From the NCBI GenBank assembly GCA_002718585.1, contig PBFG01000019.1:33086-97085 (forward strand): DNA of 64,000 nt. The letters run 5' to 3'. The stretch is from Fidelibacterota bacterium (lineage in GTDB: Bacteria; Fidelibacterota; Marinisomatia; SCGC-AAA003-L08; D37C17). Shown one piece after another: positions 1 to 39,479 of this stretch; position 1 is the first letter of the stretch; each line of letters starts with the position of its first letter. The position numbers and the translations under genes are program-made. The notes beneath the pieces were generated by a model. It was not told where the DNA came from. It saw only the letters and a program-made list of their open reading frames with translations, and did not search any database.

Positions 1-1208
1 TAACTGGTCTGTTTTTTTCTATTTTATTTTCTAGCTCAGAAATAGCACTTATATCTGCGAATAAATTGCAAATTGATGTTTGGATAAAACAGAAATATAA
101 ATTTGCTAACCTTACACGCTTCATAATTAAAAATAAATCAAAATTTTTAATTGTTGCTCTTATTGGTACAAATTTAGCAAATATTTTAGCATCATCATTT
201 GCTACTGTTTATCTAATTCAGATTATTAGTAAATATAATATTTTACATGAAAATATAGTTTTTTTACCAATTGCATTAATTATTTTAGTTTTTGGTGAAA
301 TCCTGCCAAAAACTATTATTAGAGAATATTCTAACATAATGCTGTTAGTATTTTCCCCGATTCTTTATTTTTTTTATGTGATATTTTACCCTATAGTTTA
401 TGTATTCGATAAAATTAATGTAGTCAATAACAATGTTGTAATAAGTAAAAAAGACCTTATTGAAGAAAAAAGAAATGAATTTGAGGGTATATTTCATAAA
501 GGCGACCAATCTATCAATATTGATAAAGAGCAACATAGTATTATTTCAAAAATTTTTGATTATAGGGACCAAATTGTTAAAAATGTTATGACTCCTACGG
601 ATGAAATATCTTGTATTTCATTTAATGCTGACCTAGATGATTTAGCTCATAAATTTATTGATTCTGGTCACTCAAAACTTCTTGTGTTTGATGAAAATTT
701 AAACAATGTTAAGGGAATCATTTATATTTACGACCTCTACTCTAAACCAATAAGCCTCAAAGATATAATTAGGAAAGTTATCTTTATTTCAGAGGATAAA
801 TTAATTGAAGATTTAATGAAAATTTTCAAAAAAAACAATCAATCAACAGCTATAGCAATAAACTCCAAAGGCGATACAACAGGACTAATCACAATTGAGG
901 ATATTTACGAAGAAATTTTTGGAGAGTTTGATGATGAATTTGATTATAAGAATATTCAATCTTTTATAAATAAGGATGGTTCAATAACAACCAATGCTAA
1001 AATAAGTATTGAAGATTTTAATAAAAAATATAATAATATTATTCCTAATGGTGACTACGAAACTATTGGAGGGTATATCATTAAAGAAATTGATAGAATC
1101 CCAAATGAAAATGAGCACATCTTTTTAAATATAGGTCATATAATAATTAAAAAAGCAACAGCTAGAAGAATTGAACAAATTCAAATTTTTATTAACCAAT
1201 ATGATTAA
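1..1208 (+). CDS. Hemolysin-like / CNNM family protein (DUF21 TM domain, CBS pair, CorC_HlyC C-terminal domain); 5' end runs off the window
   Basis: The frame is open from the window edge. Upstream of the tracked TTG it reads ..FSSSEIALISANKLQ.., typical of the DUF21 N-terminus. Hydrophobic N-terminal helices, a central CBS-like region and a CorC/HlyC-like tail (GLITIEDIYEEIFGEFDDE). Confidence 0.8.
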   Translation, partial: TGLFFSILFSSSEIALISANKLQIDVWIKQKYKFANLTRFIIKNKSKFLIVALIGTNLANILASSFATVYLIQIISKYNILHENIVFLPIALIILVFGEILPKTIIREYSNIMLLVFSPILYFFYVIFYPIVYVFDKINVVNNNVVISKKDLIEEKRNEFEGIFHKGDQSINIDKEQHSIISKIFDYRDQIVKNVMTPTDEISCISFNADLDDLAHKFIDSGHSKLLVFDENLNNVKGIIYIYDLYSKPISLKDIIRKVIFISEDKLIEDLMKIFKKNNQSTAIAINSKGDTTGLITIEDIYEEIFGEFDDEFDYKNIQSFINKDGSITTNAKISIEDFNKKYNNIIPNGDYETIGGYIIKEIDRIPNENEHIFLNIGHIIIKKATARRIEQIQIFINQYD

Positions 1209-21761: not shown

Positions 21762-22421
21762 ATGAATAAACTTATTTCTCTATTTATAGTACTTACTTCA
21801 TTGGTCTTTTCACAAGATAGAAGTATTATTTTTAGTACTGGTACACCTGATTCAACATCTGGGTTTTTAATTGATAATACTAATTCTTATGCAAATAGAT
21901 TCTCCGTTAATGTAGATTTTGTTTTAGAGGCTATGAATTTTTTCATGACATCAGAAAACCAGGAAAATTCAAATATTCATATATCAATTAGGGAAGATTT
22001 AAACGGAATACCTGGTGAACTTGTATCTGAATTTTCTGAATGGAACTATACTATTGATTTTGATCATCCATTTAACTACAATCTTATTCAAACCACAAAT
22101 TTGTGCGTTTATCTAGATAGCGGAAATTACTATTGGTTTGTTATAGAGGCAGCTGACAATTTAACTGAAGTTTCATGGATATATTCAAATTCTCCTTTAT
22201 ATCAAATAGCATCAAGCCAAGATTCAGGTATTTCATGGCAAACTGATGTTTCTTATGCTGGTGCTGGTTCAATTTTTGGAGAACAAATATATGTTCAAGA
22301 ATCATCAGAGGGTGATTTGAATTCAGATTTTACAACAAATGTTGTAGATATTGTTTCACTTGTAAGCTACGTACTTGGAGAATCTTCATTTGATCAAGAA
22401 CAGTTAATAATAGCAGATTAA
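21762..22421 (+). CDS. Secreted protein of unknown function ending in a dockerin-type repeat; it terminates at a TAA inside the second dockerin repeat
   Basis: Signal peptide MNKLISLFIVLTSLVFSQ and dockerin repeat GDLNSDFTTNVVDIVSLVSYVLG. The frame continues past the TAA into 22422..23051. Confidence 0.55.
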   Translation: MNKLISLFIVLTSLVFSQDRSIIFSTGTPDSTSGFLIDNTNSYANRFSVNVDFVLEAMNFFMTSENQENSNIHISIREDLNGIPGELVSEFSEWNYTIDFDHPFNYNLIQTTNLCVYLDSGNYYWFVIEAADNLTEVSWIYSNSPLYQIASSQDSGISWQTDVSYAGAGSIFGEQIYVQESSEGDLNSDFTTNVVDIVSLVSYVLGESSFDQEQLIIAD

Positions 22422-22460
22422 AATAGAGACGGTCTTATTAATGTAGTTGATATTGTTGCA

Positions 22461-23051
22461 ATGGTTAGCATTGTTTTGAGTCCACCACTCCAAGTATCTG
22501 ACTTTAACCTGGAAGACATTAATCCTGCATCAAATTACTATAGTCAAGAAATTGGACCTTCATTTTTTTCAGGACAAGTATCAGCTTACTATTTTGGGAA
22601 ACAAGGCTGAACTACATGTAAAGCCCGGTTCGGGATTCTTAATGATTTATATAATGAGTTACTTGCAGAAGGTATAGATGATGTTAAGATAATGGGTATC
22701 AATGGCTTTCAGTACATTGAAGATAGTGTTGATTGTATGATATGTAATGATGAGTGTACCTCTAATACATGTTCATCGGGACCTAGAGTATTATCGTGGT
22801 CTCAAGATTATGATGATGGATTAAATTGTTTAGATGAAAATCAAGGTATATGCGAAGCATTAGATGGCGATGGTGACGTTTGGGAATTAATGGATGCTAC
22901 CTTAAGAGATTTTGTTATAGTTGATAGAAATGGAAATGAATTTGCAAGAGTTAACTTGACTTATAACAACCCTGATCCGACTGAAATTGGAGAATGTACT
23001 GGTAACTATCAAAAAATTAAAGATTTAATTCTTTCAGCCCGCAACAGATAA
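22461..23051 (+). CDS. Thioredoxin-fold protein with in-frame TGA (candidate Sec) in a UxxC motif; true start uncertain (first ATG after the TAA is used here)
   Basis: Same frame as 21762..22421. It reads ..VSAYYFGKQG-TGA-TTCKARFG.. and joins the tracked ORF 22692..23051. It is paralogous to 27683..28342 and 28458..29111. Confidence 0.5.
22621..22640 (+). promoter_or_regulatory. SECIS-like hairpin downstream of TGA 22608
   Basis: AAG-CCCG-GUU-CGGG-(AUU bulge)-CUU. The loop G lies 20 nt after the U of UGA. It is built from GC-rich codons (gcc cgg ttc ggg) in an AT-rich gene. Confidence 0.5.
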
Positions 23052-23131
23052 TTATTGTCTTTTACCTTTATAAAACTTTAGATTAACCAGTCCGAATTAA
23101 CCTATTTAAGTATTAAAGGAGTATAATAAAT

Positions 23132-23776
23132 ATGATAGTAACTAAACCAGCACCTGAATTTAAGACACAGGCTGTTATGCCTGACAATTCAATACAAGAA
23201 GTAAAATTATCTGATTATAAAGGCAAAAAAGTTGTTCTTTTCTTTTATCCTTTAGATTTTACTTTTGTTTGCCCGACAGAATTATTAGCATTTGATAAAA
23301 GACTTTCTGAATTTGAATCTAGAGGCGTTCAAGTTTTAGGTTGTTCTGTTGATTCCAGATGGAGTCATCTTGCCTGGAAAAATACTGATGTAAACAAAGG
23401 TGGTATTGGTAATGTTCAGTATCCAATATTACAAGATTTAGATAAATCAATCGCTAGAAGTTTTGATGTTTTAGTTGGATCAACTCCTGCTACAGTGTAC
23501 ACTCAGGATACAGAAGTGGATACCACTGTTGGGGGTGGTGTTGCACTTAGAGCATCATTTTTAATTGATGAAGAAGGAATAGTTAGGCACGCAGTGATAA
23601 ATGACCTTCCACTTGGAAGAAATATTGATGAAATGGTTAGAATGGTAGATGCTTTAACTCATCATCAAAAACATGGTGAAGTTTGTCCAGCTGGTTGGAA
23701 AGATGGTGATAACGCCATGGAAGAGTCCCCAGATGGAGTTTCAAGTTACCTATCTGATAACGCAGATAATTTATAA
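23132..23776 (+). CDS. Typical 2-Cys peroxiredoxin (AhpC/Prx1 family)
   Basis: Peroxidatic motif FFYPLDFTFVCPTE and resolving motif GEVCPAGW. Strong RBS aaggag. Confidence 0.9.
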   Translation: MIVTKPAPEFKTQAVMPDNSIQEVKLSDYKGKKVVLFFYPLDFTFVCPTELLAFDKRLSEFESRGVQVLGCSVDSRWSHLAWKNTDVNKGGIGNVQYPILQDLDKSIARSFDVLVGSTPATVYTQDTEVDTTVGGGVALRASFLIDEEGIVRHAVINDLPLGRNIDEMVRMVDALTHHQKHGEVCPAGWKDGDNAMEESPDGVSSYLSDNADNL

Positions 23777-23785
23777 GGAGATTTA

Positions 23786-24217
23786 ATGAAAAAAGAAATA
23801 GTATATGCACATTGTGATGGACCTTGCGGAATTTACGATCCTGCAAGTGCTAGAATAGCAGCCGAAGCTGTGCTATCAATGACAAAAAAAATGTTAGAAC
23901 TAAAAGTTCCAGAAGATTCTGAAGCCATGGCTCATTATACAAATACAATGAGTCGATATGCTAGTATTAAAGAAGAAGAAGCTCAAAAATGTAAGGACGA
24001 AGTACTTATTCTTTGGACAGATTTTTTTAAACCTGAACATTTAAGTTCTCATCCAGATTTACATACTTTATTTTGGAATACAGCTAAATTATGTAGTTCT
24101 TGTAAGGTGGAGATTTCCATTGATCATGCAAATGAATTATTAGATCATGTTCATAAGATTCATGATTTATTTTGGTCCGTAAAAAATAGAAAAATTGATT
24201 GGTATACTGCTGGATAG
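23786..24217 (+). CDS. sodN: Nickel superoxide dismutase precursor
   Basis: Ni-hook HCDGPCGIYDP immediately after a short propeptide MKKEIVYA. About 140 aa, four-helix type. Confidence 0.92.
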   Translation: MKKEIVYAHCDGPCGIYDPASARIAAEAVLSMTKKMLELKVPEDSEAMAHYTNTMSRYASIKEEEAQKCKDEVLILWTDFFKPEHLSSHPDLHTLFWNTAKLCSSCKVEISIDHANELLDHVHKIHDLFWSVKNRKIDWYTAG

Positions 24218-24225
24218 ATTAAACA

Positions 24226-24543
24226 ATGGTTGAATTTTTACATTTCTTTGTAAAGGGTAATAGTATGCTACCTGCCCTGAAAGATGGTGATTCGATAAAA
24301 ATGATGAAATTTGATAATAATATTAATATTAATGTTAATGATATTGTCGTTTTTGAACACCCTTTCAAAAAAAAATGTAAATTAATCAAAAGAATAAAAA
24401 AAATAACCAAAGATAATAAAATTTTCGTTCAGGGTGATAATACCAATTACGAATCTAGTAATGACAGCCATAACTTTGGTTACATTAAAAAGAAAAGTTT
24501 AATTGCAATAAGAAAGGAAATAAATGAAATTACTTGCTCCTAA
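24226..24543 (+). CDS. sodX: NiSOD maturation endopeptidase (S26 signal-peptidase-like)
   Basis: VKGNSMLPALKDGD serine protease motif and GDN..S.DS tail. Located directly downstream of sodN. Confidence 0.8.
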   Translation: MVEFLHFFVKGNSMLPALKDGDSIKMMKFDNNININVNDIVVFEHPFKKKCKLIKRIKKITKDNKIFVQGDNTNYESSNDSHNFGYIKKKSLIAIRKEINEITCS

Positions 24544-24877
24544 AAAAGCTTTATCATTAAATGCGTTTGTATTAATAGTCATAGGACTACTGAGTTATGT
24601 TGTGAACAATTTCACACCAACCGCCTTAATACCAGTAATATTTGGTATTTTGTTATTAATCTTGTCATATTTGTATGATAAAAATAATAAATTAGTAGCT
24701 CATATTGGTGTTGTACTAATTTTATTAGTATTTATCAGTTTATTCAAGCCTCTTACTAGCCAAATTGATAAAAATGATCTATTTGGAATTGTTAGAGTTT
24801 TCTTGATGCAATTGGTTTCGCTTTATGCAATTGTATGTTTTGTTTCAAGTTTTATTAAAGCTAGAAAAGAAATATAA
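24524..24877 (+). CDS. Small membrane protein (about 4 TM)
   Basis: Hydrophobic 117 aa ORF overlapping the sodX end. No motif recognised. Confidence 0.5.
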   Translation: MKLLAPKKALSLNAFVLIVIGLLSYVVNNFTPTALIPVIFGILLLILSYLYDKNNKLVAHIGVVLILLVFISLFKPLTSQIDKNDLFGIVRVFLMQLVSLYAIVCFVSSFIKARKEI

Positions 24878-24900
24878 AGATTTTTTAAATATAAATTTTC

Positions 24901-24981
24901 GGAGAGGTGGACAACGGCTGTCGAGCGGTCTTGAAAACCGTCGCCCCTATGGGGTTGCAGGTTCGAATCCTGTCCTCTCCG
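24901..24981 (+). tRNA. tRNA-Ser (anticodon UGA)
   Basis: GGAGAGG acceptor paired with CCUCUCC, anticodon loop CUUGAAA, long variable arm (GCCCCUAUGGGGU) and T-loop GGTTCGAATCC. Confidence 0.88.
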
Positions 24982-24993
24982 CAATAATTCAAT

Positions 24994-25079
24994 GGAGAGT
25001 TGGCAGAGCGGTAATGCAGCGGATTGCTAATCCGTCGTGATGTAACAATCACGCGCGAGTTCAAATCTCGCACTCTCCG
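24994..25079 (+). tRNA. tRNA-Ser (anticodon GCU)
   Basis: GGAGAGU acceptor paired with ACUCUCC, anticodon loop UUGCUAA, long variable arm (GUGAUGUAACAAUCAC) and T-loop AGTTCAAATCT. Confidence 0.88.
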
Positions 25080-25095
25080 CTCGGAGCATATAGAA

Positions 25096-25123
25096 ACCCC
25101 TTGTAATAGCGAGGGGTTTTTTG
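25096..25123 (+). terminator. Rho-independent terminator after the tRNA-Ser pair
   Basis: ACCCCT-tgtaatagcg-AGGGGT stem followed by a T-run (ggggttttttgttt). Confidence 0.7.
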
Positions 25124-25253
25124 TTTATAAACTACGATTTAATAGACAATCAAACTAAATTGCGAATATAATTGATGATTAACACACAAAGAAATAGAAA
25201 AACAAATAAAGCGAACCAACTCAACATATATAAGATAACTTTTTTAAGTTTTT

Positions 25254-25463
25254 TCACGATAATAGCCACAAATAAAAAATTATAGGTGATAACATAGAAC
25301 AAGTTAATATAAATATACCTAAATTCATTCTTCGTCTGTAATAGATATATTTTTGAGGATCTGTTGTTTTTTTAATTCGATCTTTCGCAACTGCAATACC
25401 AGATATCAAAACATATAAAATCCATAATACAGCAAGTATTGGTATTATTATTAAAAACTTCAT
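25254..25463 (-). CDS. Small membrane protein, unknown
   Basis: 69 aa with two hydrophobic helices. Overlaps the upstream small ORF by 4 nt. Confidence 0.4.
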   Translation of the reverse strand: MKFLIIIPILAVLWILYVLISGIAVAKDRIKKTTDPQKYIYYRRRMNLGIFILTCSMLSPIIFYLWLLS

Positions 25464-25654
25464 TTTTTATCTTTAAATAGATAGATTGCAAAAAAAGAAA
25501 CTAAAGAAACAGCAATCCAAATAAATCCACCGTTATCTAAATTTTGAAGTGCCTTAACAATGCAATAAACCCCACCAATAAAAGATAGCCTCTGTGCAGT
25601 ATTAAGTTCTTTGTAAAAGTCAAACATATCTAAAATTAAAAAAGATTTAAACAT
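25460..25654 (-). CDS. Small membrane protein, unknown
   Basis: 64 aa with two hydrophobic segments. ATGA-type overlap with the next ORF suggests translational coupling. Confidence 0.4.
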   Translation of the reverse strand: MFKSFLILDMFDFYKELNTAQRLSFIGGVYCIVKALQNLDNGGFIWIAVSLVSFFAIYLFKDKK

Positions 25655-25875
25655 TAATAAATAAATATTATAAATAATTTTATCCTAAATGAATTTTAAT
25701 TTAATAAACATATTTAAATATCAATAATATATATATATTATAATGATTATATAAACCTTTTTATTAGATAATAAATAACCATTTTTTTTATTATTTTCAA
25801 AAACAAAATTGAAAAATTATACTTTTAAAGTAACCTTTGATTAGTAAATAATTATGCATTTTCTTAATTTTATTA

Positions 25876-26208
25876 ATGATTTTTAATGATTCTTTTTACT
25901 TTATAATTTTATTTTTAATTGCGATTACATTCTTTTTTTTAGTAAAATTATTTTTCAACTACATAAAATTAAAATCTATTACTAAAGAACTTGAAAGCCT
26001 TTTAACTAAAGAAGATGAATTTTCAGTTAAATTAATAGATAAGAAGACTGAGTACTTAAACTTTCAAAAAAAAGTTCATAGAGGCAATATTTTTATATTA
26101 TTGTTGTTTGGTATTCCATTTTCTTTAGCTATGATACTTATCTCACCAATATGGTTCTTAATTTCTGGCTTTATTTTTTATATTTTCATTTCCTATAATA
26201 AAAAATAA
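25876..26208 (+). CDS. Small membrane protein, unknown
   Basis: 110 aa with N- and C-terminal hydrophobic helices flanking a charged segment. Confidence 0.4.
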   Translation: MIFNDSFYFIILFLIAITFFFLVKLFFNYIKLKSITKELESLLTKEDEFSVKLIDKKTEYLNFQKKVHRGNIFILLLFGIPFSLAMILISPIWFLISGFIFYIFISYNKK

Positions 26209-26277
26209 TTTTAAAAATAGAAACTATCCCTATCATTAAGAGTACAAATAATATATCTTATTTTGAAAGGATCAATT

Positions 26278-27153
26278 ATGAATTTAATACATCAAATTTC
26301 AATGATTATTTTCATTCCTTCTATATTATTTTCTTCGAATAAATGCTGCAGTTATGAAAAATGTGAAGGATATAAAACTAAAATCTCAAAAGATGTATCA
26401 GAATTTAAATTTGGAAATAATAATTATAGACTAATTGTTGATGTTTTTGACACATACAATGATTTTCATATTTCTCATGATTTATTCATTACTTACAAAG
26501 TATATAAAAACAATCAACTGATAAATGATATCGTTAAAGATGATAATACAATTAAAGGAGACTGTAATAATTTGAATGGTGGTGAATATTCTATTGAGCT
26601 TATAGAAGATGATAAAAAATACATTGGTTGGATTATATATTCACCATATTACTGTGGAGCTTCTTCCAGTGCAGATTGGGGCACAATAATCATACCATCA
26701 AAGAATGAAAATAACTATGTAAAGTCAAAAACTAAAATTTGGAGTAATTCATTTCAATTTTCAAAAACAACAAATGGTTTGAATTTTTATTACACTAAAC
26801 AGAGTTGGAATCAAGGTGGAACGTGGTCAAGTATCTATATACCTCTGAAACTACATTATGATCAAAAAAGTAATGTTATATTTTCTAAAAATATTGAAAT
26901 CGAGGATATAAATTTCTTAAAAAATAAATCTTTTCTAGGTTTATTTATGTCTGGATTTGAATCTTACAATACAGATTTAATGGATTATGCTGTTAAAAAT
27001 TATTTTAGTGAAAAAGAATTAGATTGGTATGAAAGTTATTTTGGAACTAAACATAGGTCACATACATCAATAGTTGATATTAAAAATAAAGAAATAATAC
27101 TGCACGATTGTTCAAAAAATAGTTTTTTAAAAATTATTAATGATTTAAAATAA
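26278..27153 (+). CDS. Hypothetical secreted/lipid-anchored protein
   Basis: The ATG at 26278 is preceded by aaagga. Signal-like N-terminus MNLIHQISMIIFIPSILFSSNKCC. No motif recognised. Confidence 0.5.
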   Translation: MNLIHQISMIIFIPSILFSSNKCCSYEKCEGYKTKISKDVSEFKFGNNNYRLIVDVFDTYNDFHISHDLFITYKVYKNNQLINDIVKDDNTIKGDCNNLNGGEYSIELIEDDKKYIGWIIYSPYYCGASSSADWGTIIIPSKNENNYVKSKTKIWSNSFQFSKTTNGLNFYYTKQSWNQGGTWSSIYIPLKLHYDQKSNVIFSKNIEIEDINFLKNKSFLGLFMSGFESYNTDLMDYAVKNYFSEKELDWYESYFGTKHRSHTSIVDIKNKEIILHDCSKNSFLKIINDLK

Positions 27154-27183
27154 TTTGTATTGACAAACACATAATTTCAAATA

Positions 27184-27399
27184 TTAGTTAATGATTAACT
27201 TTGTTATATCATCAAGAATAATGTAACCAATAAACATTAAAAATACTGATATTATTCCAATCAATCTTAAGGCATTTTTAGAAAACTTATCTCCTACAGA
27301 CTTAATTAATAACTGGCTAACAATTGCAATAAAAAAACCTGCAAAAATTATAAACCAGCTTAATACCTTAAATCCTTTTGCTGAAACTAAAACGTCCAT
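27184..27399 (-). CDS. Small membrane protein, unknown
   Basis: 71 aa with two hydrophobic helices. Confidence 0.4.
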   Translation of the reverse strand: MDVLVSAKGFKVLSWFIIFAGFFIAIVSQLLIKSVGDKFSKNALRLIGIISVFLMFIGYIILDDITKLIIN

Positions 27400-27420
27400 T
27401 TTATATTTTGGTAAAGCTAT

Positions 27421-27600
27421 CTAAAGAAAGCTTTTAGACATCAGGTAAACTATTATTATGAAAACTGCAAGGAGACCGACTGTAACTAAAAACTGTACAT
27501 ATTTTGGAAACTTAACATTTTTTTTCCAAACTTGGTTGATAGATTCTATAAACAAGCCTGTTACGGCAATAAAAGCTATAATTACTATTAACTTAGTCAT
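27421..27600 (-). CDS. Possible small membrane protein (59 aa, below the ORF-track cutoff)
   Basis: Hand translation gives MTKLIVIIAFIAVTGLFIESINQVWKKNVKFPKYVQFLVTVGLLAVFIIIVYLMSKSFL, with two helices. Confidence 0.3.
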   Translation of the reverse strand: MTKLIVIIAFIAVTGLFIESINQVWKKNVKFPKYVQFLVTVGLLAVFIIIVYLMSKSFL

Positions 27601-27682
27601 TCAATAAATTAACAATTTATAAAAGTTATTTACTAGGTTAAATTAATTTTGTTTTTCTCAAATAATCATTTATATTTCATCT

Positions 27683-28342
27683 ATGAAAAGATATATTTTG
27701 ATATTATTATTTTCAAATCTACTTGCAAATGTATTTGAATATTCACTTTTGGATTACAATACGACATCCCCTACCCATCAACTAGATGTTTGGTACCCGG
27801 AATATTCTAATCACATTACAATGCATTATTTTGCAACTCAAGGATGAGCGGGCTGAACCGCAACATTTGGACAGTTGTCCAACTTTCAAGAAGAATTAAA
27901 AAACGATTATGGCTTCGAAAATGTTGTAATCATAGCAATTGGCCAAACTAATATTAGTAGTTTTAATAATAGTTTTTGCGCAAATTCTGATTTACCTCTA
28001 GTCATGGATGAATTTCCTGAGCTTCCAATTAGAGAACAATTTTCGCCTTATGGCGAATCACATGATTTTATAATTGTCGATTATGATGGTAATTATTTAG
28101 ATCACATTAACTTTTTAAGTTTAGGAAATATTGAAAAAAATTATATAATCGACGTACTAGAAGATAATTACAACCAAATAGTTTTGGGTGATGTTAATGG
28201 TGATACATTCGTTAATATTCAAGATGTCATTTTACTCGTTAATATGATACTTAGTAATTCATCTGATAATGTAGATGTAAATGGAGATGGCTCTACTAAT
28301 ATTTTGGATGTTATACAGATAGTTAATATTATTTTAAATTGA
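27683..28342 (+). CDS. Secreted thioredoxin-fold protein with two in-frame TGA codons (candidate UxxU redox motif) and a C-terminal dockerin pair
   Basis: The ATG at 27683 gives MKRYILILLFSNLLANV.. and ITMHYFATQG-TGA-AG-TGA-TATFGQL, in frame with tracked ORF 27875..28342. Dockerin repeats GDVNGDTFVNIQDVILLVNMIL and VDVNGDGSTNILDVIQIVNIIL. Confidence 0.55.
27867..27882 (+). promoter_or_regulatory. SECIS-like hairpin downstream of TGAs 27845 and 27854
   Basis: UUGGAC-AGUU-GUCCAA, a 6 bp stem. The loop G lies 20 nt after the second UGA and 29 nt after the first. Confidence 0.4.
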
Positions 28343-28417
28343 ATCAATTTTTTATTCTAATTTTTAAAATTTAATTAAATCTCTTGTATTTAATTCAATT
28401 ATCACCTTAAATTAAAA

Positions 28418-28432
28418 CGTGCAAAACGTGCA
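28418..28432 (+). promoter_or_regulatory. CGTGCA-N3-CGTGCA direct repeat upstream of the 28458 gene
   Basis: cgtgcaaaacgtgca is a GC-rich island in an AT-rich spacer, 26 nt before the ATG. The same motif occurs twice upstream of proteorhodopsin. Confidence 0.35.
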
Positions 28433-28457
28433 ATTAAAAATTTATGGAGAATTTTAT

Positions 28458-29111
28458 ATGAGAGTTTTTTTAATGTTATTAATAACATCTTTTAGTTTTA
28501 GTCAATACGCTTACAGTCTAACTGATAATAATAGTTCATCTGATTATTACCTAGAAAATGTCGGTCCAGAATATTTTGAAAATCAAATAACCATGCATTA
28601 TTTTGGAAGCTTTACATGAGGTCTGTGTAATTCGCGGTTCGCGCAATTAAACACCTTATATGAGTCCTTACTTGATAGTGGATATGACCAAGTTAAACTT
28701 ATTGGAATAGGCTACAGTTATCAATCTAATTCTTACAGTAATTGGTCAAATTCAAATGAATTCTCATCAGTTTGTTATGATGATAGCAACAATCCTACTT
28801 TTAATAGCTGGGGAGCGAGTCAAAGAGATTTTTATGTTTTAGACCACGAAAAGAATCTTGTCCTGGAACAAAATATTTCTGGAGGATTACCTGATAATCT
28901 TGAATCCCTAATCATTAACCTAATAAGCGATATACCAAACGAAATAATTAATGGTGATTTTAACCAAGATGGAGTATTAAATGTAGTAGATGTTGTTTCA
29001 ATTATTAATTTAGTTTTAACTAATCAATATAATGAGATTGCTGATGTTAATAGTGATAATTTATTAAATGTAGTAGATATTGTAATGCTAGTTAATCTAA
29101 TAATATCCTAA
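28458..29111 (+). CDS. Secreted thioredoxin-fold protein with in-frame TGA (candidate Sec, UxxC) and a C-terminal dockerin pair
   Basis: MRVFLMLLITSFSFSQ signal peptide and ITMHYFGSFT-TGA-GLCNSRFAQL. The frame stays open to the TAA at 29109. Dockerin repeats GDFNQDGVLNVVDVVSIINLVL and ADVNSDNLLNVVDIVMLVNLII. The ORF track reports only the part before the TGA. Confidence 0.6.
28629..28648 (+). promoter_or_regulatory. SECIS-like hairpin downstream of TGA 28617
   Basis: AAUU-CGCG-GUU-CGCG-(C bulge)-AAUU. The loop G lies 20 nt after the U of UGA, with the same CGGUUCG core as the hairpin at 22621. Confidence 0.5.
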
Positions 29112-29116: not shown

Positions 29117-29773
29117 TTATTGATTGTTTAGATCACTGAAATCAATTGTTATATACAATCTTCTGTATTTCTCATCATAATATGGAGATCGATGTACGAG
29201 TCCCTGACCTTTGTTTCCTGACCATAGTTCACCCTTTAACAAAGCAACATCACCTATAGCTAAATGCTTAATATCTGTTTTACTCGAAAATAAGCCATCT
29301 TGGTCTTTACTAAATTTTTGATTAAATTTTAGTTTTCTCCTATCAATTAAATCATTTGGCAGCCATTCTGTACCTGGTCCATAATATGTTGTCAGCAATC
29401 TACATTTTAAATAATCAACATGAAATCTAGGACATGTTGCATTTGTTGAAATACCCATTCTTAACCAAACTTTCTTCAGTTCAAACATATTACAAAATAA
29501 TTCGGATAAATTAGATATATCATTAAATAAAAATATTTTATTTTGAGATTGACCTAATCTATTAACTAGAGCTTCATTTATTTCGTTATACTTGAGAACT
29601 TTTGAAAAGTCAAATTCTAAATTATCATTAATTATTTCTTCTGCACCAAAAGATATTGATTCATCCAATTTCCTTTTCCATAATGAAATATTATTTTTGT
29701 TATCAAAAATTTCTGATAGAACTATGGATTTTCTGTTAAAAATATTTTTTCTTAAAATTGTTTTATTAATCAC
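29117..29773 (-). CDS. Conserved hypothetical protein, DUF1826-like (frequent partner of COG0523 GTPases)
   Basis: Overlaps the upstream COG0523 gene by 4 nt. The family assignment is from memory of the pairing and of CPRFHVD..HRSP-type motifs, and is tentative. Confidence 0.5.
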
Positions 29774-30969
29774 GAAATTTCATTCCATTCAGGAAATGGA
29801 TCATTAAATGTTTCCCAATGTTTTCTACCCATTAATAAGTCATCCGTAGATAATAAACAATCATCAAGGAGTTTAATAATTTTATTTTTTTCTAAACCTT
29901 GACCGATAAAAACTAATTCTTGACGCATGTCACCAAATGGTTCTACCCATTTTTCATCTATAAAATCTAATGTTTCTTGGTCTTCAGGCCAACGTTCTTT
30001 TGGTATCGCTTTCCAAAACATTCCAGCAAAACCATGGTGAGCTATTCCCCCCGCTTGATTCCAACTTCCCGCAAACATGGGCCGTGATGCGAGCCAAAAA
30101 AAACCTTTTGATCTAATTAATTTTCCAGCAATATCTTTACTGTGTAAAAAATTATGAAATTTTTCAGGATAAAAGGGTCTTCGAGCTTCGTAAACAAAAC
30201 TACTTATGCCATACTCTTCTGTTTCTGGTATATGTTCTCCATTCATTTCCTGCATCCATCCGGGTGCTTTTTGAGCTTTTTCAAAATCAAATAATCCAGT
30301 GTTTAAAATCTTATCAATTTTAATTCCTCCGTTTGAAATTGGAATGATTTCAGCATTTGTATTTAAAGTTTTTAAAATAGAAACTAATTTATTTATTTTT
30401 TTCTGATTCACTAAATCAATTTTACTAATTAGAATTATATCAGCAAATTCAACCTGATCGACTAATAGGTCCGCTACACTTCTATGATCATCTTCTCCCA
30501 GTGACTCACCAACTTCTTGAAGATATTTTGCTTCATCATAATCCTTCAAAAAATTTACTGCATCTACAACAGTTACCATTGTATCTAATTTAGATACATC
30601 TGAAAGCGATGTACCATTTTCATCTTCAAATATAAATGTTTCTGCAACTGGTAAAGGTTCAGATATACCCGTTGATTCAATTAATAAATAATCAAATTTA
30701 TTAGATTTAGCTAATTTGGAAACTTCGACTAATAAATCCTCTCTCAAGGTACAACATATACAACCATTACTCATTTCTACTAATTTTTCTTCTTTGTAAT
30801 CAAGTGAAACATCTTTTTGAATCATACTTTGATCTATATTAATTTCACTCATATCATTCACTATAACAGCAACTTTCTTTCCTTCTCGATTATTTAATAC
30901 ATTGGTTAATACTGTTGTTTTTCCTGCTCCTAAAAATCCTGATAGAACAGTTACAGGTAATCTCTCCAT
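29770..30969 (-). CDS. COG0523-family G3E GTPase (CobW/ZigA/YjiA-like zinc metallochaperone)
   Basis: P-loop GFLGAGKTT, metal-binding [10 protein letters not shown] (CxCC), ESTGISEP and a CobW_C-like tail. Confidence 0.88.
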
Positions 30970-31182: not shown

Positions 31183-31872
31183 ATGGAATATTTAACATGG
31201 CTGGTTCCCGGCCACGAAAATTTCTTAGTAAGTTTCTCATTTTGGTTTGCAACAGCAATGATGCTTGCCGCAACAGCCTTTTTTTACGTTGAGAGAAGGG
31301 ACGTTAATGCTAAGTGGAAAACTTCACTTACAGTAGCAATGCTTGTTACAGGAATCGCATTTTGGCATTATTTATATATGACAGATTACTTTTTCGCAAC
31401 AGGTAACTCACCAATCGTCTTAAGATATGTTGATTGGTTAATAACAGTACCATTACAAATTGTAGAATTTTACTTGATACTTGCAGCAGTAACTACAGTA
31501 TCAAAATCATTATTCTGGCAATTATTAGTAGCATCACTTGTGATGTTAGTTGGTGGATTCTTAGGAGAAGCAGGATTAATGGCTAGAATGCCTGCCTTTG
31601 TAATAGGAATGCTTGGTTGGTTTGGAGTCTTATACCTTATATTCATGGGTGAGGCAGCAAAAGCTAACGACGCCAGTGGTAATGAAGCTGGACAAAAAGC
31701 ATTTAGTGCTTTAAAATGGATTGTACTAGTTGGTTGGGCAATGTATCCGATCGGCTACTATTTAGATGGTACAGGACATACAACAGATATCGTTTATAAC
31801 TTTGCTGACTTAGTTAATAAAGCAGCTTTTGGCCTTGTAATTTGGGCTGCAGCTAAATCAGATAAATCATAA
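31183..31872 (+). CDS. Proteorhodopsin, proton-pumping (DTE motif), blue-tuned (Gln at position 105)
   Basis: RYVDWLITVPLQIVEFYLIL gives D97, T101, Q105 and E108 by alignment to green PR. Schiff-base Lys is in FADLVNKAAFGLVIW and His is in AFWHYLYM. Strong RBS aggagg at 31169. Confidence 0.93.
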   Translation: MEYLTWLVPGHENFLVSFSFWFATAMMLAATAFFYVERRDVNAKWKTSLTVAMLVTGIAFWHYLYMTDYFFATGNSPIVLRYVDWLITVPLQIVEFYLILAAVTTVSKSLFWQLLVASLVMLVGGFLGEAGLMARMPAFVIGMLGWFGVLYLIFMGEAAKANDASGNEAGQKAFSALKWIVLVGWAMYPIGYYLDGTGHTTDIVYNFADLVNKAAFGLVIWAAAKSDKS

Positions 31873-31881
31873 ACGCCACCG

Positions 31882-31915
31882 AAAAAGGGAATTCGTTTTT
31901 TGAATTCCCTTTTTC
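31882..31915 (+). terminator. Rho-independent terminator/attenuator after proteorhodopsin
   Basis: AAAAAGGGAATTC-gtttttt-GAATTCCCTTTTT, a perfect 13 bp stem with a T-rich 3' side. Confidence 0.7.
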
Positions 31916-31923
31916 ACTTAACG

Positions 31924-32886
31924 ATGAATTATAAGATTTTAAACCAAAAAATTTCTTTTATATTTCTTCGAGTAACTTTTCTATTATTTGCCATTGCAGC
32001 TGTAGCACCTAATTTTAACAATTTAATACTTAACGACTACTTTTGTTCCTTTCTCATACTGACAATTGGATTATCTCATGGAGCTTTAGATAACCAAAAA
32101 GGTAAAATTGTCTTAGATTTTTTTAAATCCAATAAAATGTCGCTGTTTTATATTGCTTATGTGGCTTTTTCAATTATTGCAATCAGTTGCTGGTATAACT
32201 TTCCAACGATAAGCTTACTGACATTATTAATTATTGGACCCTATCACTTTGGTAAGGATGATTGTGATCTGTTTAAGATTAATAAATTTAGTTTTAGAAA
32301 TATAATTTTTTTTGTTAAGGGCACTGTAGTTATAAGTGCCCCACTTCTGTTTAATTTTAATGAAACAATTGATATATTTAAAATACTTTCATCAGATTCA
32401 AATTTTTTAATATCATCATTATTATACTTAAATGAAAATAATTTAATTTTATTTTTTGTATTATTTGGTTTTATCAGTTCAATATATCTTCCAAGAGATT
32501 TTTCAATTAAATTTTTATTGTACGTTGAATTTACATCTATTATTCTTTTAAACTATTTATTTAAGCCCTATGCAGCATTTACAATATATTTTTGTTTTCT
32601 TCATTCAATGAGGCATATAATTGTCTTGAATAAAAGCTTAAACTTATTAAAACCAAAAAATAAAAAACCAAAAACTTCAGTTTTTAATATATTCAATAAT
32701 TTTTATAAGCATGCATTAAAGTTAACTTTAATTTCATCCTTTATCTTTCTATCATGCATGTATGTGAGTTCAAATCTACTTTACGTTGATGATACTCTAT
32801 TAAAGATAATTTTTCCAGGCTTAGCTGCATTAACTCTACCTCATATAATTTTAGATTTCTTGTATGAAAAAATAAAAGCTTATTAG
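31924..32886 (+). CDS. blh: Brp/Blh-family beta-carotene 15,15'-dioxygenase (retinal synthesis)
   Basis: Polytopic membrane protein with four conserved His contexts (LSHGALD, GPYHFGKDD, FLHSMRH, LPHIILD), directly downstream of the rhodopsin. I prefer the ATG at 31924 because the tracked TTG at 31900 lies inside the terminator stem. Confidence 0.8.
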   Translation: MNYKILNQKISFIFLRVTFLLFAIAAVAPNFNNLILNDYFCSFLILTIGLSHGALDNQKGKIVLDFFKSNKMSLFYIAYVAFSIIAISCWYNFPTISLLTLLIIGPYHFGKDDCDLFKINKFSFRNIIFFVKGTVVISAPLLFNFNETIDIFKILSSDSNFLISSLLYLNENNLILFFVLFGFISSIYLPRDFSIKFLLYVEFTSIILLNYLFKPYAAFTIYFCFLHSMRHIIVLNKSLNLLKPKNKKPKTSVFNIFNNFYKHALKLTLISSFIFLSCMYVSSNLLYVDDTLLKIIFPGLAALTLPHIILDFLYEKIKAY

Positions 32887-33322: not shown

Positions 33323-34867
33323 ATGAAAATTTTACTTCTAAATACAATTATATGTTTTTCTTTATTATCAGCTGCTTTAGTAGATGATGAAATCTCATTA
33401 AAAGTAGCTCAAAATACTTTTATAAAATACCACCCCTCTAAAAATATTGATGAGTTTAATATTAAGAGTATTGATATCATTAAAAATCAAGATGATTCAT
33501 TAATTAAAATTTATCAATTAAACCCTACAGGTTTTATAATGGTATCTCTAGAAGATAAGACACTTCCTGTTCTTGCATATGGTTTTGAATCTAATTTCAA
33601 ATTGGTTGATATGCCAGATAACTTATCTTACATCATTAATTTATATAAAAATCAAATAATAGATGCTAGAAACTCTATTTCTGTCAGATCACAAGAAATA
33701 GAATCAGAATGGAACTCACTAATTACACCAAATAATAATGAAATTGATAGAGAAAGTTCTAGAAATGTAAGTCCACTTATAGATGCTAGATTTGATCAAG
33801 GTGGTGCTTGGAATAATGCTTTAATACAATTTGGCTTTAATGGTCCTGTTGGATGTGTAGCAGTATCTATGGCCCAAATTATGCACTACTGGGAATATCC
33901 AGAGCAAGGATCAGGTTCTAATTCATATGTTGAAGATGATTATGGTATTCTTGAAGCAAATTTTGGTCAAGCATTCTATGATTACAGTAGCATGGCAAAT
34001 ACTTATGCTACTTCTGCTTCTCAATTACTACTTCATCATTCAGGAATTTCGGTTAATATGGACTATGCAAATTCGGGTTCTGGAGCATATGTAACTGGTT
34101 CTTATCCCTCAGCTCAGTATGCATTAGAAACCTATTTTTTATATGATGATGGAGTTTATGCTGTAACAAAAGATAGCTATACAACCTCAGAATTTAGAGA
34201 TTTTCTTATTAATGAGCTAGATAACAATAGACCTATTTTATATAGTGGTTATAGTGATACTTACGGAAATGGTGGACATGCTTGGAATGTTGATGGATAT
34301 CAAGGTAATAGTGTTCATTGTAATTGGGGCTGGGGTGGTTCTAATAATGGATATTTTAATTTAAATACTATGGGTGGTTTTGAAGCAGACCAAACTGCTT
34401 TGATTAATCTAATTCCTCAGTCATATACTAATCCGTTAGCTTTATTTGAATATGAAATTGACGAGATGACTGCTATTTTTATAGACTTATCAGAATTTGT
34501 TAATGAAACCCAAATAAGTAGTTGGAACTGGGATTTTGGCGATGGCAATAGCGTTTCTAATAGCTATAGTTATGCTGAACACTCATATTCTAATCCTGGA
34601 GAATATGAAGTAAAACTTACAGTTACTAATATTTATGGACAAACAGGTGCTGAACATTCTGAGCTTATTCAAATAGGATCTCCTATTCTACCAGGTGATA
34701 TTAATATTGATGAACTAGTTAACATTTTAGATGTAGTAATGTTAATAAACTTTGTTTTGGGTTCAGTTAATCCTAGTGATGCAGAATTCAACTCTGGTGA
34801 TTATAATTTAGATGGTTTTCTAAATGTCCTAGATGTTGTATTGATTATTAACTTAATCCTTGATTAG
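33323..34867 (+). CDS. Secreted C10-family cysteine peptidase (streptopain-like) with Spi-type prodomain, PKD domain and C-terminal dockerin pair
   Basis: Catalytic Cys in GCVAVSMAQIMHYW and His in GGHAWNVDGY. PKD signature WNWDFGDGN...YEVKLTVTN. Dockerin repeats GDINIDELVNILDVVMLINFVLG and GDYNLDGFLNVLDVVLIINLIL. Confidence 0.85.
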   Translation: MKILLLNTIICFSLLSAALVDDEISLKVAQNTFIKYHPSKNIDEFNIKSIDIIKNQDDSLIKIYQLNPTGFIMVSLEDKTLPVLAYGFESNFKLVDMPDNLSYIINLYKNQIIDARNSISVRSQEIESEWNSLITPNNNEIDRESSRNVSPLIDARFDQGGAWNNALIQFGFNGPVGCVAVSMAQIMHYWEYPEQGSGSNSYVEDDYGILEANFGQAFYDYSSMANTYATSASQLLLHHSGISVNMDYANSGSGAYVTGSYPSAQYALETYFLYDDGVYAVTKDSYTTSEFRDFLINELDNNRPILYSGYSDTYGNGGHAWNVDGYQGNSVHCNWGWGGSNNGYFNLNTMGGFEADQTALINLIPQSYTNPLALFEYEIDEMTAIFIDLSEFVNETQISSWNWDFGDGNSVSNSYSYAEHSYSNPGEYEVKLTVTNIYGQTGAEHSELIQIGSPILPGDINIDELVNILDVVMLINFVLGSVNPSDAEFNSGDYNLDGFLNVLDVVLIINLILD

Positions 34868-35123: not shown

Positions 35124-36053
35124 TTACCATTCTTCTTCTTCTTCTTCCTCAGGCTTGTTATTTACTAGCCATTCCTCAAAATCTTCAGGTTCATGAACTT
35201 GCATATAACCTTTCATAAAATAATGAGAATTCCCACATAATTGTGCACATGCTATTTGATAACCTCTATAATAAGAATCTCTAACACTTTCAGGAAGCAT
35301 ATCATAAGTATCCTGATCTTTATCTAATTTATTATTATAACGAACAGGATCATTTTCTTTTAAATATTCCAAGTATTCATCACTAGATTTTGTTGCCGTA
35401 AAGTAAATAGGTATTTCCATTCCAGGAATTGCATCTTGTTTGACTCTCATCTCTGGTAAAGCAAAACCATGAATAACGTCTCTAGACGATAATCTTATCT
35501 TTATCTGCTTTCCTTTGGGTATATGAAGCTGATTCATTGTAACGATATCATCAGCACCATAACCTTGCCTACTTAGCCCAATAAAATTTTGAGCTCCATC
35601 ATCTACTGAATCAGCATAAGTTTGACCAAAAACGCCATCTTCGCCTGGATAGTGGATATTCCACTGAAACTGTTGAGCTATGACTCTAATTTCTATTTCA
35701 GAATCATCTTTTACTTCTAATTTTTCATACTTTAAATCATAATATCCAGGGATAGCCAAAGCAAATAATAAGAATAGCTCAAACCCTATGACCCCAAATT
35801 CAGCATACTTAGAAAATTTACCCCTCAACCCTTGATGAGAAGCTTTTGGATTATTCTTACTAGAAAATCTTATTAAAACGTAAACCAAAAAAACACCCCA
35901 AAAAACAAATAAAATCAACATCAACATATGAACCCATCCATTTAAAACATCAGTTTTAAAACCAAACATTGAGCCATCATATGGAAAGCTAAGAAATGTA
36001 TCACTTATAAACTGACCAATTTTATCTATTATGTTTATTTCTACTTCTTTCAT
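35124..36053 (-). CDS. coxB: Cytochrome c oxidase subunit II (CuA), no fused cytochrome c, poly-Glu C-terminal tail
   Basis: CuA ligands HGFALPEM...CAQLCGNSHYFM. Two N-terminal TM helices. It ends NNKPEEEEEEEW. Confidence 0.9.
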   Translation of the reverse strand: MKEVEINIIDKIGQFISDTFLSFPYDGSMFGFKTDVLNGWVHMLMLILFVFWGVFLVYVLIRFSSKNNPKASHQGLRGKFSKYAEFGVIGFELFLLFALAIPGYYDLKYEKLEVKDDSEIEIRVIAQQFQWNIHYPGEDGVFGQTYADSVDDGAQNFIGLSRQGYGADDIVTMNQLHIPKGKQIKIRLSSRDVIHGFALPEMRVKQDAIPGMEIPIYFTATKSSDEYLEYLKENDPVRYNNKLDKDQDTYDMLPESVRDSYYRGYQIACAQLCGNSHYFMKGYMQVHEPEDFEEWLVNNKPEEEEEEEW

Positions 36054-36265
36054 TTAACTCCGCCTTCTATTTCATAAGCTCTTGCTCTTTTAACTAAAAC
36101 AAAAATACTAGCAGCAATACTGGATAAAACAAAAACAACAATGGATAATAAAAATAAAATACCATTATTCATACCTTCAGTAACAGGATGTTCAGGTGCA
36201 CCATAACATACAGCACATGCAAAAATATTTTGAATTAAAAAAATTGATAAAACTATATATTTCAT
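36050..36265 (-). CDS. Small signal-peptide/TM protein with a CxxC motif inside the cox operon
   Basis: MKYIVLSIFLIQNIFACAVCYGAPEHP followed by a TM helix. I prefer the internal ATG because the tracked start overlaps the upstream ORF by 38 nt. Confidence 0.45.
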   Translation of the reverse strand: MKYIVLSIFLIQNIFACAVCYGAPEHPVTEGMNNGILFLLSIVVFVLSSIAASIFVLVKRARAYEIEGGVK

Positions 36266-36266
36266 A

Positions 36267-36464
36267 TTAAAGATTCTTATATTTGTTAATAAAATTTTTT
36301 CCATAAATAACTAATAGTATTGAACTAACGATACTAAGAGCTATGTAGGATATATAAGCACTATCTGCATAAAAGTCCCACATTAAATAAGACCAAGAAC
36401 CAAAGTAAATCATTAATAAAACTGCAAAAGAAACAAAAATTATATGAAATAATCTTAGAGACAA
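36267..36464 (-). CDS. Small two-helix membrane protein inside the cox operon
   Basis: 65 aa hydrophobic ORF packed between coxIV and the CxxC microprotein. Confidence 0.4.
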   Translation of the reverse strand: MSLRLFHIIFVSFAVLLMIYFGSWSYLMWDFYADSAYISYIALSIVSSILLVIYGKNFINKYKNL

Positions 36465-36467
36465 GTT

Positions 36468-36833
36468 TTAATGCCCTCCTTTTTTGTTATAGTCTAATTC
36501 GTCGGAATCAAGGTGTTGCACATTTTCATAAGAACCATTTCCATATCCAACACTATTATTGTACCACATTATAGGCATAGCTAATAAAACAAAAAAGAAT
36601 AACATTGTAAATATCAGAGTACCATAAATCCATTTTCTCTCATCATTTAAATGCATAAAATGTGATGCAACTAAATATCCTTTAACACATGCAATTAATA
36701 AGCCAACTGCTAAGCCCATTGCATGCGAAGAAAAATGGATGTAGGATACACCCACAGTCGCTACTGTAAGTACTAATAATGCTATAAAAACATTTCTATA
36801 AATTTTAATATGATGTTTAATATCTTCACTCAT
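36468..36833 (-). CDS. Cytochrome c oxidase subunit IV (prokaryotic CtaF/CoxIV family)
   Basis: N-terminal HIKIYRNVFIALLVLTVATV, typical of bacterial subunit IV, with three TM helices. Located after coxIII. Confidence 0.75.
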   Translation of the reverse strand: MSEDIKHHIKIYRNVFIALLVLTVATVGVSYIHFSSHAMGLAVGLLIACVKGYLVASHFMHLNDERKWIYGTLIFTMLFFFVLLAMPIMWYNNSVGYGNGSYENVQHLDSDELDYNKKGGH

Positions 36834-36849
36834 AAGAATACCTCAATTA

Positions 36850-37440: not shown

Positions 37441-37451
37441 TAATATAACTC

Positions 37452-39131: not shown

Positions 39132-39146
39132 AATTCTCCTATTAAA

Positions 39147-39479
39147 TCAATCAATTATTGTATCAAATCTTTCTTCGTACTCATTAGTATTTACCATTCT
39201 AATGGCGTCCCAGGTTAACTTGGTACATACTTTTGCGCAAATCTGACATCCTATACACTCATTTTCTCTAACATGTACTGGAGGAATTGGAGGCCATGTG
39301 TATTTATCAGCTGGAACAGGTTCAATACAATCTACAGGGCAAAAAGGGATACAAGCCTGACAACCTGTGCAATTATCTTCATCTACCCATGCAATTTTTT
39401 TTGGGCGTGTTTTCTTAGTATTTACCTTCTGGGGTAACTCAGGAACTTGCTTTAAGTGATCATATACTTTGGATGCCAT
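39147..39479 (-). CDS. 2x[4Fe-4S] ferredoxin-like protein, first gene of the cox operon
   Basis: Two cluster motifs, CTGCQACIPFCP and CIGCQICAKVC. 15 nt upstream of coxI. Confidence 0.85.
   Translation of the reverse strand: MASKVYDHLKQVPELPQKVNTKKTRPKKIAWVDEDNCTGCQACIPFCPVDCIEPVPADKYTWPPIPPVHVRENECIGCQICAKVCTKLTWDAIRMVNTNEYEERFDTIID

Follow-up and report, generated by a model that had tools for sequence, protein, structure and literature searches.

Dockerin-tailed, thioredoxin-fold genes of the probable Prx-like 2 selenoprotein family in a 64-kb stretch of a SAR406 genome

The closest described relatives of the genes considered here belong to "Prx-like 2", a family catalogued by Zhang & Gladyshev (2008; PMC2398784) in the metagenomes of Global Ocean Sampling (GOS). 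It was placed among the known selenoprotein families, outside the seven new ones of that study, and was described as a very distant homologue of the peroxiredoxins (Prx), with a UxxC motif (U being selenocysteine, Sec), low similarity to pfam04592 and enrichment in marine samples: 99 Sec sequences (23 samples) and 100 Cys homologues are given in its Table 2, and UxxU variants as well as a fusion to a domain called "Unknown_2" were also reported (PMC2398784). The family is now covered by the curated profile NF053656 ("TUGYCR motif thioredoxin fold (seleno)protein", redoxin_TUGYCR, NCBIfam release 20, cut-off 100 bits). The present analysis deals with three genes with in-frame TGA codons, A, B and C, located at positions 21762-29111 of a 64-kb stretch of contig PBFG01000019.1 (the whole stretch being referred to as the window; G+C content about 28%). 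In all likelihood, they are three paralogous members of Prx-like 2 (NF053656) in a genome of SAR406/Ca. Neomarinimicrobiota.

The assignment is based on both profile scores and direct sequence matches. Gene A exceeds the NF053656 cut-off (111.5 bits, E 3e-32, residues 245-425), and genes B and C show clear homology to the same profile, no other family scoring higher. Moreover, the "#Prx-like 2" section of Dataset S1 in PMC2398784 includes near-identical orthologues of all three genes. JCVI_READ_1092963166880 carries the B and C types in tandem (...HYFATQGUAGuTATFGQL... and ...HYFGSFTU...), the gene A-type reads (JCVI_READ_1189786 and 1091140728852) contain the beta-sandwich, the dockerin and YYFGKQGU, and read 1092963480406 bears ATUGYCR, the motif that names NF053656. 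Genes A, B and C and the described family are the same family, with near-identical sequences, and nothing essential differs between them.

An earlier interpretation of this region, made from the letters and open reading frames (ORFs) alone and referred to below as the sequence-only reading, had implied that the family was new. This implication has to be given up: the family with its Sec codon, the UxxU variant, the architecture of gene A and other fusions, and the near-identical orthologues have been public since 2008 (PMC2398784) and a curated hidden Markov model, NF053656, is available, so that the locus carries little weight as a discovery. What is new here is the naming of the tails as type I dockerins or type IX secretion system (T9SS) sorting domains, the assignment of a host and the quantification of the selenocysteine insertion sequence (SECIS) by covariation. 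Dockerin is not named in Prx-like 2 by PMC2398784, and a literature search returned no paper combining "dockerin" with "Marinimicrobia" and none containing "TUGYCR"; two with both "selenoprotein" and "dockerin" bear titles on other subjects (CNS drug delivery and a CAZyme domain-architecture tool). As regards the host, a contig of a Ca. Neomarinimicrobiota metagenome-assembled genome (MAG), L002, shows 94% identity, and a Tara contig, L024, is about 100% identical to the window: the family is now tied to SAR406/Marinimicrobia, among the most abundant lineages of the ocean.

As deduced by translation, gene A extends over 21762-23051 (+ strand), with a TGA at 22608-22610, an additional TAA at 22419-22421 and the centre QG-U-TTC; gene B over 27683-28342 (+ strand), with TGAs at 27845-27847 and 27854-27856 and the centre QG-U-AG-U; and gene C over 28458-29111 (+ strand), with a TGA at 28617-28619 and the centre FT-U-GLC. 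The likely start of gene C is the ATG at 28458, preferred over a GTG at 28419; the resulting product of 217 aa matches public data. In all three genes the in-frame TGA occupies the first position of the U-x-x-C/U centre, the N-terminus is signal-peptide-like and a dockerin module is present. The sequence blocks which the sequence-only reading had listed as common to the three genes are all seen in a three-way alignment, and the domain orders are also as it had described them: signal peptide, beta-sandwich, dockerin and thioredoxin (Trx) domain in A, and signal peptide, Trx domain and dockerin in B and C.

A scan of the whole window for TGA-split frames gave genes A, B and C as the only credible read-through candidates. 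TGA is also the stop codon of 10 of the 50 long ORFs in the window; it is therefore an ordinary stop here, without genome-wide reassignment. A syntenic contig of 1.66 Mb, L001, retains the three genes and all four TGAs, with gene products about 87-99% identical to those of the window. Gene-caller products stop at the TGA (54, 66 and 282 aa), separate ORFs following downstream. These genes are still mis-called in public MAG annotation, being split or truncated at the TGA or given W at the site, and the public protein sets hold fragments beginning after the TGA or full-length products with W.

The comparative evidence for selenocysteine was drawn from metagenome contigs by means of the DNA pattern HYFG-x3-[TGA/TGC/TGT]-x2-C-x2-RF-x2-L, which matched at least 120 contigs. 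Although TGC and TGT were permitted, TGA was found in 122 of the 123 matches listed; the lone TGT match is an unrelated chance match outside the family. The reading frame is conserved on both sides of the TGA in at least 122 sequences, some of them only about 40% identical. A Cys homologue, P0146, reads NCSIC at the Sec position and scores 186.6 bits with NF053656; its contig, of only 1.9 kb, has no informative gene context. With regard to the individual genes, the TGA of gene A is retained in L001 and in the GOS orthologues, that of gene C is retained in L001 and stands at the same position as the TGA of at least 122 family matches of the metagenome scan, and both TGAs of gene B are kept in L001, several GOS reads having UAGU or UGGU.

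In addition to the codon itself, the family shares a hairpin 3' of the TGA, with a GGUU apex at +20..23, which is built from Arg-Phe codons. The spacing is similar to that of the SECIS of E. coli fdhF, in which G23 and U24 lie in the loop. In gene A the hairpin is found at 22621-22637 (+ strand; AA.CCCG-GUU-CGGG.UU, GGUU apex at +20..23, counted from the U of UGA), in gene C at 28629-28648 (+ strand; AAUU-CGCG-GUU-CGCG-(C)-AAUU) and in gene B at 27867-27882 (+ strand; UUGGAC-AGUU-GUCCAA, 6 bp with an AGUU loop, 3' of the second TGA). Among 106 sequences, CGG encodes the Arg of the apex in 78, AGG in 27 and AGA, overall the commonest Arg codon, in 1; the two codons of the apex are coupled (CGG-UUC or AGG-UUU), resulting in two registers of pairing.

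The uninterrupted stem has a mean length of 4.89 bp, compared with 2.29 +/- 0.11 bp after synonymous resampling (1000 times) and 2.67 +/- 0.10 bp when the apex was kept fixed. Within one register, pairs are formed in 71.5% of the cells (65.8 +/- 0.7 in shuffles, 0/500) and covariation scores 0.222 (0.132 in shuffles, 0/500); with the register slid, pairing falls to 23-47%. RNAalifold found no consensus structure in the 106 sequences because the hairpin exists in two registers, the loop being GUU with CGG-UUC and GGUU with AGG-UUU, and explicit stem counting was applied in its place. Since the codons CGG-UUC and AGG-UUU make the apex, the conserved "RF" block of the protein is partly an RNA signal, a constraint relevant to anyone interpreting its conservation in this family. 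The conserved TGA, a hairpin under selection and its covariation all point to genes A, B and C as selenoprotein genes, as the sequence-only reading had proposed.

As for the catalytic core, a profile built from 23 family members and compared with the PDB gave Bacillus subtilis ResA as top match (E 8.7e-4), the family UxxC (UxxU in B) falling on ResA's CEHC/CPHC, where helix 1 begins. The AlphaFold2 model of P0001 (pLDDT 92.4, pTM 0.78), a product 99% identical to that of gene C and carrying W at the Sec site, has a TlpA-type Trx fold and, after it, two dockerin helices. The top Foldseek matches of this model in the PDB are DsbE (3gl3), ResA (3c73 and 1su9) and CcmG (1kng), with a probability of 1.00 and a TM-score on the target (TMt) of 0.70-0.76; Bcp4, glutathione peroxidase (GPx), Prx and Sco structures are likewise among the matches. 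The Pfam model Thioredoxin_8 (cut-off 27) scores 17.7 bits with gene B and 22.8 with gene C, does not match gene A, and is found in 12 of the 23 members with E values of 1e-4 or weaker. Profile and model thus support the TlpA-like fold put forward by the sequence-only reading. That reading had staked itself on a core within the thioredoxin superfamily and on repeats of dockerin type; both points were tested, the core was placed in that superfamily and the repeats proved dockerin-like.

The likeness to TlpA, ResA and DsbE (CcmG) consists of a secreted Trx fold with an N-terminal beta-hairpin, a central insert and a redox pair at the N-terminus of helix 1; in gene A the domain has a U-T-T-C centre and a Cys-rich insert. 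Unlike those proteins, the family has Sec in place of the first Cys, Arg at the cis-Pro position of ResA, sub-threshold scores with the Trx-type models of Pfam, no membrane anchor, no linked CcdA or DsbD, and dockerin or T9SS tails. A further relative is SelP_N (PF04592, cut-off 23.2), which shares a secreted, UxxC-containing Trx-like module and weak local similarity at a (K/R)D(D/F) hydrophobic strand: the score of gene A is 12.5 bits (E 0.094), and matches occur in 2 of the 23 members (best E 0.0083). The same weak similarity was noted by the GOS authors (PMC2398784). In contrast with SelP_N proteins, the family stays far under the gathering threshold, lacks a Sec-rich C-terminal tail and has a bacterial SECIS within the ORF.

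The nature of the chemistry is where an alternative carries most weight. The Sec module could be a Prx/GPx-type thiol peroxidase, or bind metals (Cu/Hg) in the manner of Sco, and not be a disulfide reductase like TlpA/ResA, a proposal that is possible though on balance doubtful. The name given by the discoverers, for a very distant Prx homologue (PMC2398784), is in its favour, as are weak matches to AhpC-TSA (8 of 23 members, best E 1.2e-6) and SCO1-SenC (9 of 23) and the presence of Bcp4, GPx, Prx and Sco among the Foldseek matches. The profile alignment sets the conserved Arg of QRDLF on the Pro of ResA PlPTTF, presumably the cis-Pro facing the active site. When the family was aligned by hhalign with the window's own Prx, Sec fell on the peroxidatic Cys, in an alignment that is not significant (E 0.074, 41 columns), and the protein would act outside the cell without an obvious reductase partner. 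Comparison with the Prx (AhpC/TSA, BCP) shows a common Trx fold, with the reactive residue at the same structural position and, by inspection of the sequences, a conserved Arg on the strand after the active-site loop.

Nevertheless, where Prx have PxxxTxxC the family reads (H/Y)YFGxxxU, with neither Pro at -7 nor Thr at -3; the UxxC spacing is that of oxidoreductases and not of Prx, to which the similarity is only distant; the CxxxC plus His arrangement of Sco is also lacking; and the top matches in both sequence and structure are ResA, DsbE and CcmG. Given the Arg at the cis-Pro position of ResA and the absence of PxxxTxxC, the sequence cannot choose between disulfide exchange and thiol-peroxidase activity. 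Because of that Arg and of the alignment of Sec on the peroxidatic Cys of Prx, chemistry closer to that of a thiol peroxidase than to that of a reductase could be the case even within the Prx-like 2 assignment, which is retained in what follows.

The second module of these proteins is the dockerin. Pfam Dockerin_1 (PF00404, cut-off 22.9) gives 28.5 bits for gene A (residues 184-233) and 32.5 for gene B, gene C being narrowly under the cut-off with 20.2 bits, and the dockerins of the window match the last ~60 positions of NF045500. Each one comprises two DxNxDxxxNxxD F-hand loops, with a helix after each (helices 176-187 and 205-216 in the model of P0001): the loops are DLNSDFTTNVVD and D*NRDGLINVVD in gene A, DVNGDTFVNIQD and DVNGDGSTNILD in gene B, and DFNQDGVLNVVD and DVNSDNLLNVVD in gene C. 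In the AlphaFold2 model of an A-type homologue, P0199, the dockerin superimposes on the type I dockerin of C. thermocellum (2ccl_B) with a TMt of 0.88, a root-mean-square deviation of 1.3 A and 34% identity. The dockerin modules recognised by the sequence-only reading are well founded, then, on the Pfam passes in A and B and on this superposition. The model of P0199 also has a confident N-terminal jelly-roll beta-sandwich, corresponding to the "Unknown_2" of the GOS paper, whose nearest Foldseek matches are phage receptor-binding and capsid jelly-rolls and CBM6; its Trx part was modelled at lower confidence because the alignment is shallow there.

The nearest relative of the tails is the cellulosomal type I dockerin (2ccl_B, Xyn10B), with the same two F-hand loops and helices. 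Here, however, neither cohesin nor scaffoldin was found in the scanned ORFs of the window, the host is not cellulolytic, the dockerin of gene A is internal and not C-terminal, and across homologues the module alternates with T9SS sorting domains: among the 82 genes of the family whose 3' end is complete, a T9SS sorting domain is present in 44, a dockerin in 31 (16 of them with a Cys-rich linker) and neither in 7. It is inferred that the dockerin is one of two interchangeable localisation tails, and its alternation with T9SS domains at the same position suggests that the proteins are displayed at the outer membrane or beyond it. With tails that were previously unnamed or "unknown" identified as dockerins, a testable prediction can be made, namely that the selenoenzyme is located at the cell surface or outside the cell.

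Dockerins seem to be in general use as tails in this genome. A secreted C10 peptidase at 33323-34867 combines a Spi inhibitor-like prodomain, the C10 domain, a PKD domain and a dockerin (Dockerin_1, 35.4 bits). Furthermore, Prx-like 3 with "Unknown_3", another group of marine Trx-fold UxxC selenoproteins, has dockerin-like C-termini: the tail only is shared, the catalytic domains being different. Figure S1D of PMC2398784 shows in Unknown_3 DxDxDG repeats of calcium-binding type followed by dockerin-like NVNGD...NIIDV repeats (DxNxDxxxNxxD), so that Prx-like 3 seems to be another family of marine selenoproteins whose tails, never named as such, are dockerins.

The following scheme can be proposed for the three genes, building on the hairpin structure with its covariation, the Trx fold, the dockerin fold and the alternation of tails, which the above analyses demonstrate. 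The UGA of each gene would be translated as selenocysteine, as the comparative evidence suggests, read-through being directed by the short hairpin within the ORF, with its GGUU apex about 20 nt past the UGA, to which SelB would presumably bind. The product would then be exported by means of its predicted N-terminal signal peptide, and the exported TlpA/ResA-like module, with its Sec-x-x-Cys pair (Sec-x-x-Sec in B), may cycle between the selenol/thiol and selenenylsulfide forms. Finally, the dockerin would serve as localisation tail, so that the protein would be displayed at the outer membrane or further out.

A bolder extension, which we consider unlikely, is that the tails display Prx-like 2 outside SAR406 cells as extracellular selenoenzymes acting on seawater peroxides, on dissolved thiols and disulfides or on metals. 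Those with a dockerin, and with them the C10 protease-dockerin of 33323-34867, might be attached to an undiscovered, non-cellulosomal cohesin scaffold. If true, such extracellular display would link the oceanic demand for selenium to redox chemistry at the cell surface.

Several results weigh against the proposal that A, B and C are functional Prx-like 2 selenoproteins of TlpA/ResA type. Genes B and C stay below the NF053656 cut-off, with 72.2 bits (E 4e-20) and 80.9 bits (E 9e-23), respectively, and are therefore divergent sub-branches of Prx-like 2. The family lacks the cis-Pro of the TlpA/ResA class as well as the Prx motif, as described above. In gene B, it is only with the second TGA that the G21-U22 of the hairpin is in register: the hairpin is offset by 9 nt with respect to the rest of the family, the second TGA aligns on the Cys codon of the other members, and at the usual spacing from the first TGA there is no hairpin, a GCGG/CCGC stem with non-canonical spacing lying across the first-UGA region (three near-identical B DNA sequences). 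No cohesin was found in the scanned ORFs of the window (100 aa or more), and no reductant partner (CcdA, DsbD) is linked to the genes in the family loci. Moreover, tblastn with E. coli SelA, SelB and SelD and a search with ARAGORN, covering the window and 615 kb of related loci, found no selA, selB, selD or tRNA-Sec.

Some candidates for this machinery were considered and rejected. The tblastn matches to the three E. coli queries are generic GTPases only. A gathering-threshold Rfam scan of the window returned tRNAs only, and a low-scoring tRNA-Sec candidate at 24901-24982 has the anticodon UGA and corresponds to tRNA-Ser, not tRNA-Sec. Two adjacent tRNA-Ser genes lie at 24901-25080 (anticodons UGA and GCU), the first of which scores 40.7 bits with the tRNA model and has its anticodon placed by ARAGORN, unusually, at position 32. 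The SelO/YdiU homologue at 10449-11897 (- strand), linked by its name to a selenoprotein family, is an adenylyltransferase without in-frame TGA and does not belong to the Sec machinery.

With regard to the lineage, SAR406 single-cell genomes have been listed with SelD (PMC5029168). In 14 metagenome loci a gene of the ArsC/Spx family whose catalytic Cys is encoded by an in-frame TGA (MSKVLIYHNPR-U-GKSRES) is located 6-72 nt upstream of the Prx-like 2 gene, on the same strand, forming a putative selenoprotein gene pair (e.g. L003 3823-4143, L007 432-749 and L010 5930-6247); no copy of it exists in the window. It resembles the "ArsC 1, UxxS" family described in the GOS paper, and, as a probable second selenoprotein of the same lineage, it can be counted as support for the use of Sec there.

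The sequence-only reading had also set the three genes in an antioxidant neighbourhood. The locations it gave are right, since gene A is followed, according to Pfam, by a 2-Cys peroxiredoxin (23132-23776, + strand), a nickel superoxide dismutase (NiSOD; 23786-24217, + strand) and an S26 peptidase which probably matures it (24226-24543, + strand). That the three selenoproteins, Prx, NiSOD and the NiSOD protease form one functional antioxidant unit is nevertheless highly improbable. The closeness of Prx, 80 bp past the end of gene A, with NiSOD and the peptidase next in the same orientation, is consistent with such a unit, as is one GOS read with neighbouring Prx and Prx-like 2 selenoprotein genes (PMC2398784). 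In L001, however, the place of NiSOD and the S26 peptidase is taken by an unrelated, Urate_ox_N-like gene (268 aa, 5690-6496), A, B, C and Prx being kept, and by tblastn no Prx, NiSOD or S26 peptidase was found in about 120 other family loci, within the available locus sequence. Genes B and C lie some 3-4 kb downstream, beyond the two tRNA-Ser genes and several opposite-strand genes, and Prx and NiSOD lack signal peptides, which places them in a different compartment from the selenoproteins. As a system, the neighbourhood does not stand, only L001 retaining Prx and not even L001 having NiSOD and the protease: the adjacency is read as local and not as a conserved system. Among the family loci neither a reductase nor a cohesin recurs as neighbour; the recurrent ones are the ArsC-like selenoprotein, low-molecular-weight protein tyrosine phosphatase-like and beta-lactamase-like genes, which look like a reflection of lineage synteny.

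The view that the TGAs are genuine stops, the genes being split or pseudogenes and the downstream frames relics, has very little chance of being correct. It would account for the 54-, 66- and 282-aa products and separate downstream ORFs of the gene callers, and for the absence of Sec machinery from the window, and gene A does hold a disabling TAA in this assembly. Conservation of both halves in frame in at least 122 sequences, down to about 40% identity, is against it, as are the position of the TGA exactly on the first Cys of the CxxC of P0146 and ResA and the selection on the hairpin at synonymous sites. The N-terminal piece alone, moreover, would be a fragment of the Trx fold of 35-50 residues without active site.

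The TAA of gene A (22419-22421, + strand), which the sequence-only reading had not reported, falls in the second dockerin repeat (AD*NRDG, from reading of the sequence) and can be considered apart from the TGAs. L001 codes for Leu at that position, and TTA differs from TAA by one base. The exact 219-aa product which the TAA ends occurs on a single contig, NCBI MBI72552.1 (Ca. Marinimicrobia MAG), most other listed members of the same cluster having 282 aa and each being found on up to 12 contigs. The gene A type is widespread, with more than 100 homologue clusters at 90% identity: their typical length is about 281-283 aa, because gene callers end the products at the TGA, and in none of them is it about 219 aa. 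The TAA is a nonsense mutation or an assembly error, and gene A, as assembled, may be non-functional here.

The least credible alternative of all, reassignment of TGA to Trp or Gly (code 4 or 25) with W or G at the sites, would agree with the W placed there by public pipelines in P0001, P0002, P0005 and P0007 and with a G+C content of about 28%, comparable to that of some code-4 lineages, but TGA terminates 10 of the 50 long ORFs, no further credible in-frame TGA was found within 64 kb, its position is that of the catalytic Cys of the fold, and a local RNA hairpin would be needless under genome-wide recoding.

Other features of the window were also recorded. A 296-aa ORF at 26263-27153 has no Pfam or NCBIfam match and is not present in L001, representing, like NiSOD and the peptidase, a strain-level difference in gene content. 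Directly 3' of gene C, at 29117-30969 (- strand), a ZigA-type zinc metallochaperone GTPase gene (673.9 bits) stands together with a DUF1826 gene, a pair which is kept in L001, L002, L024, L052 and L124. At 31183-32886, a rhodopsin gene is followed by that of a beta-carotene 15,15'-dioxygenase (Blh), a pair for retinal-based phototrophy, the rhodopsin being read as a proteorhodopsin from the Bac_rhodopsin match of its L001 orthologue (product 99% identical). A CusF/SCO1-SenC fusion gene lies at 40964-41812. Finally, respiratory gene clusters occupy 35124-39479 and 42475-48193 (- strand): one comprises cytochrome c oxidase subunits, named through Pfam on their L001 counterparts, and a ferredoxin-like gene, and the other contains genes for a 1035-aa multihaem cytochrome c, a split cytochrome b and a Rieske protein.

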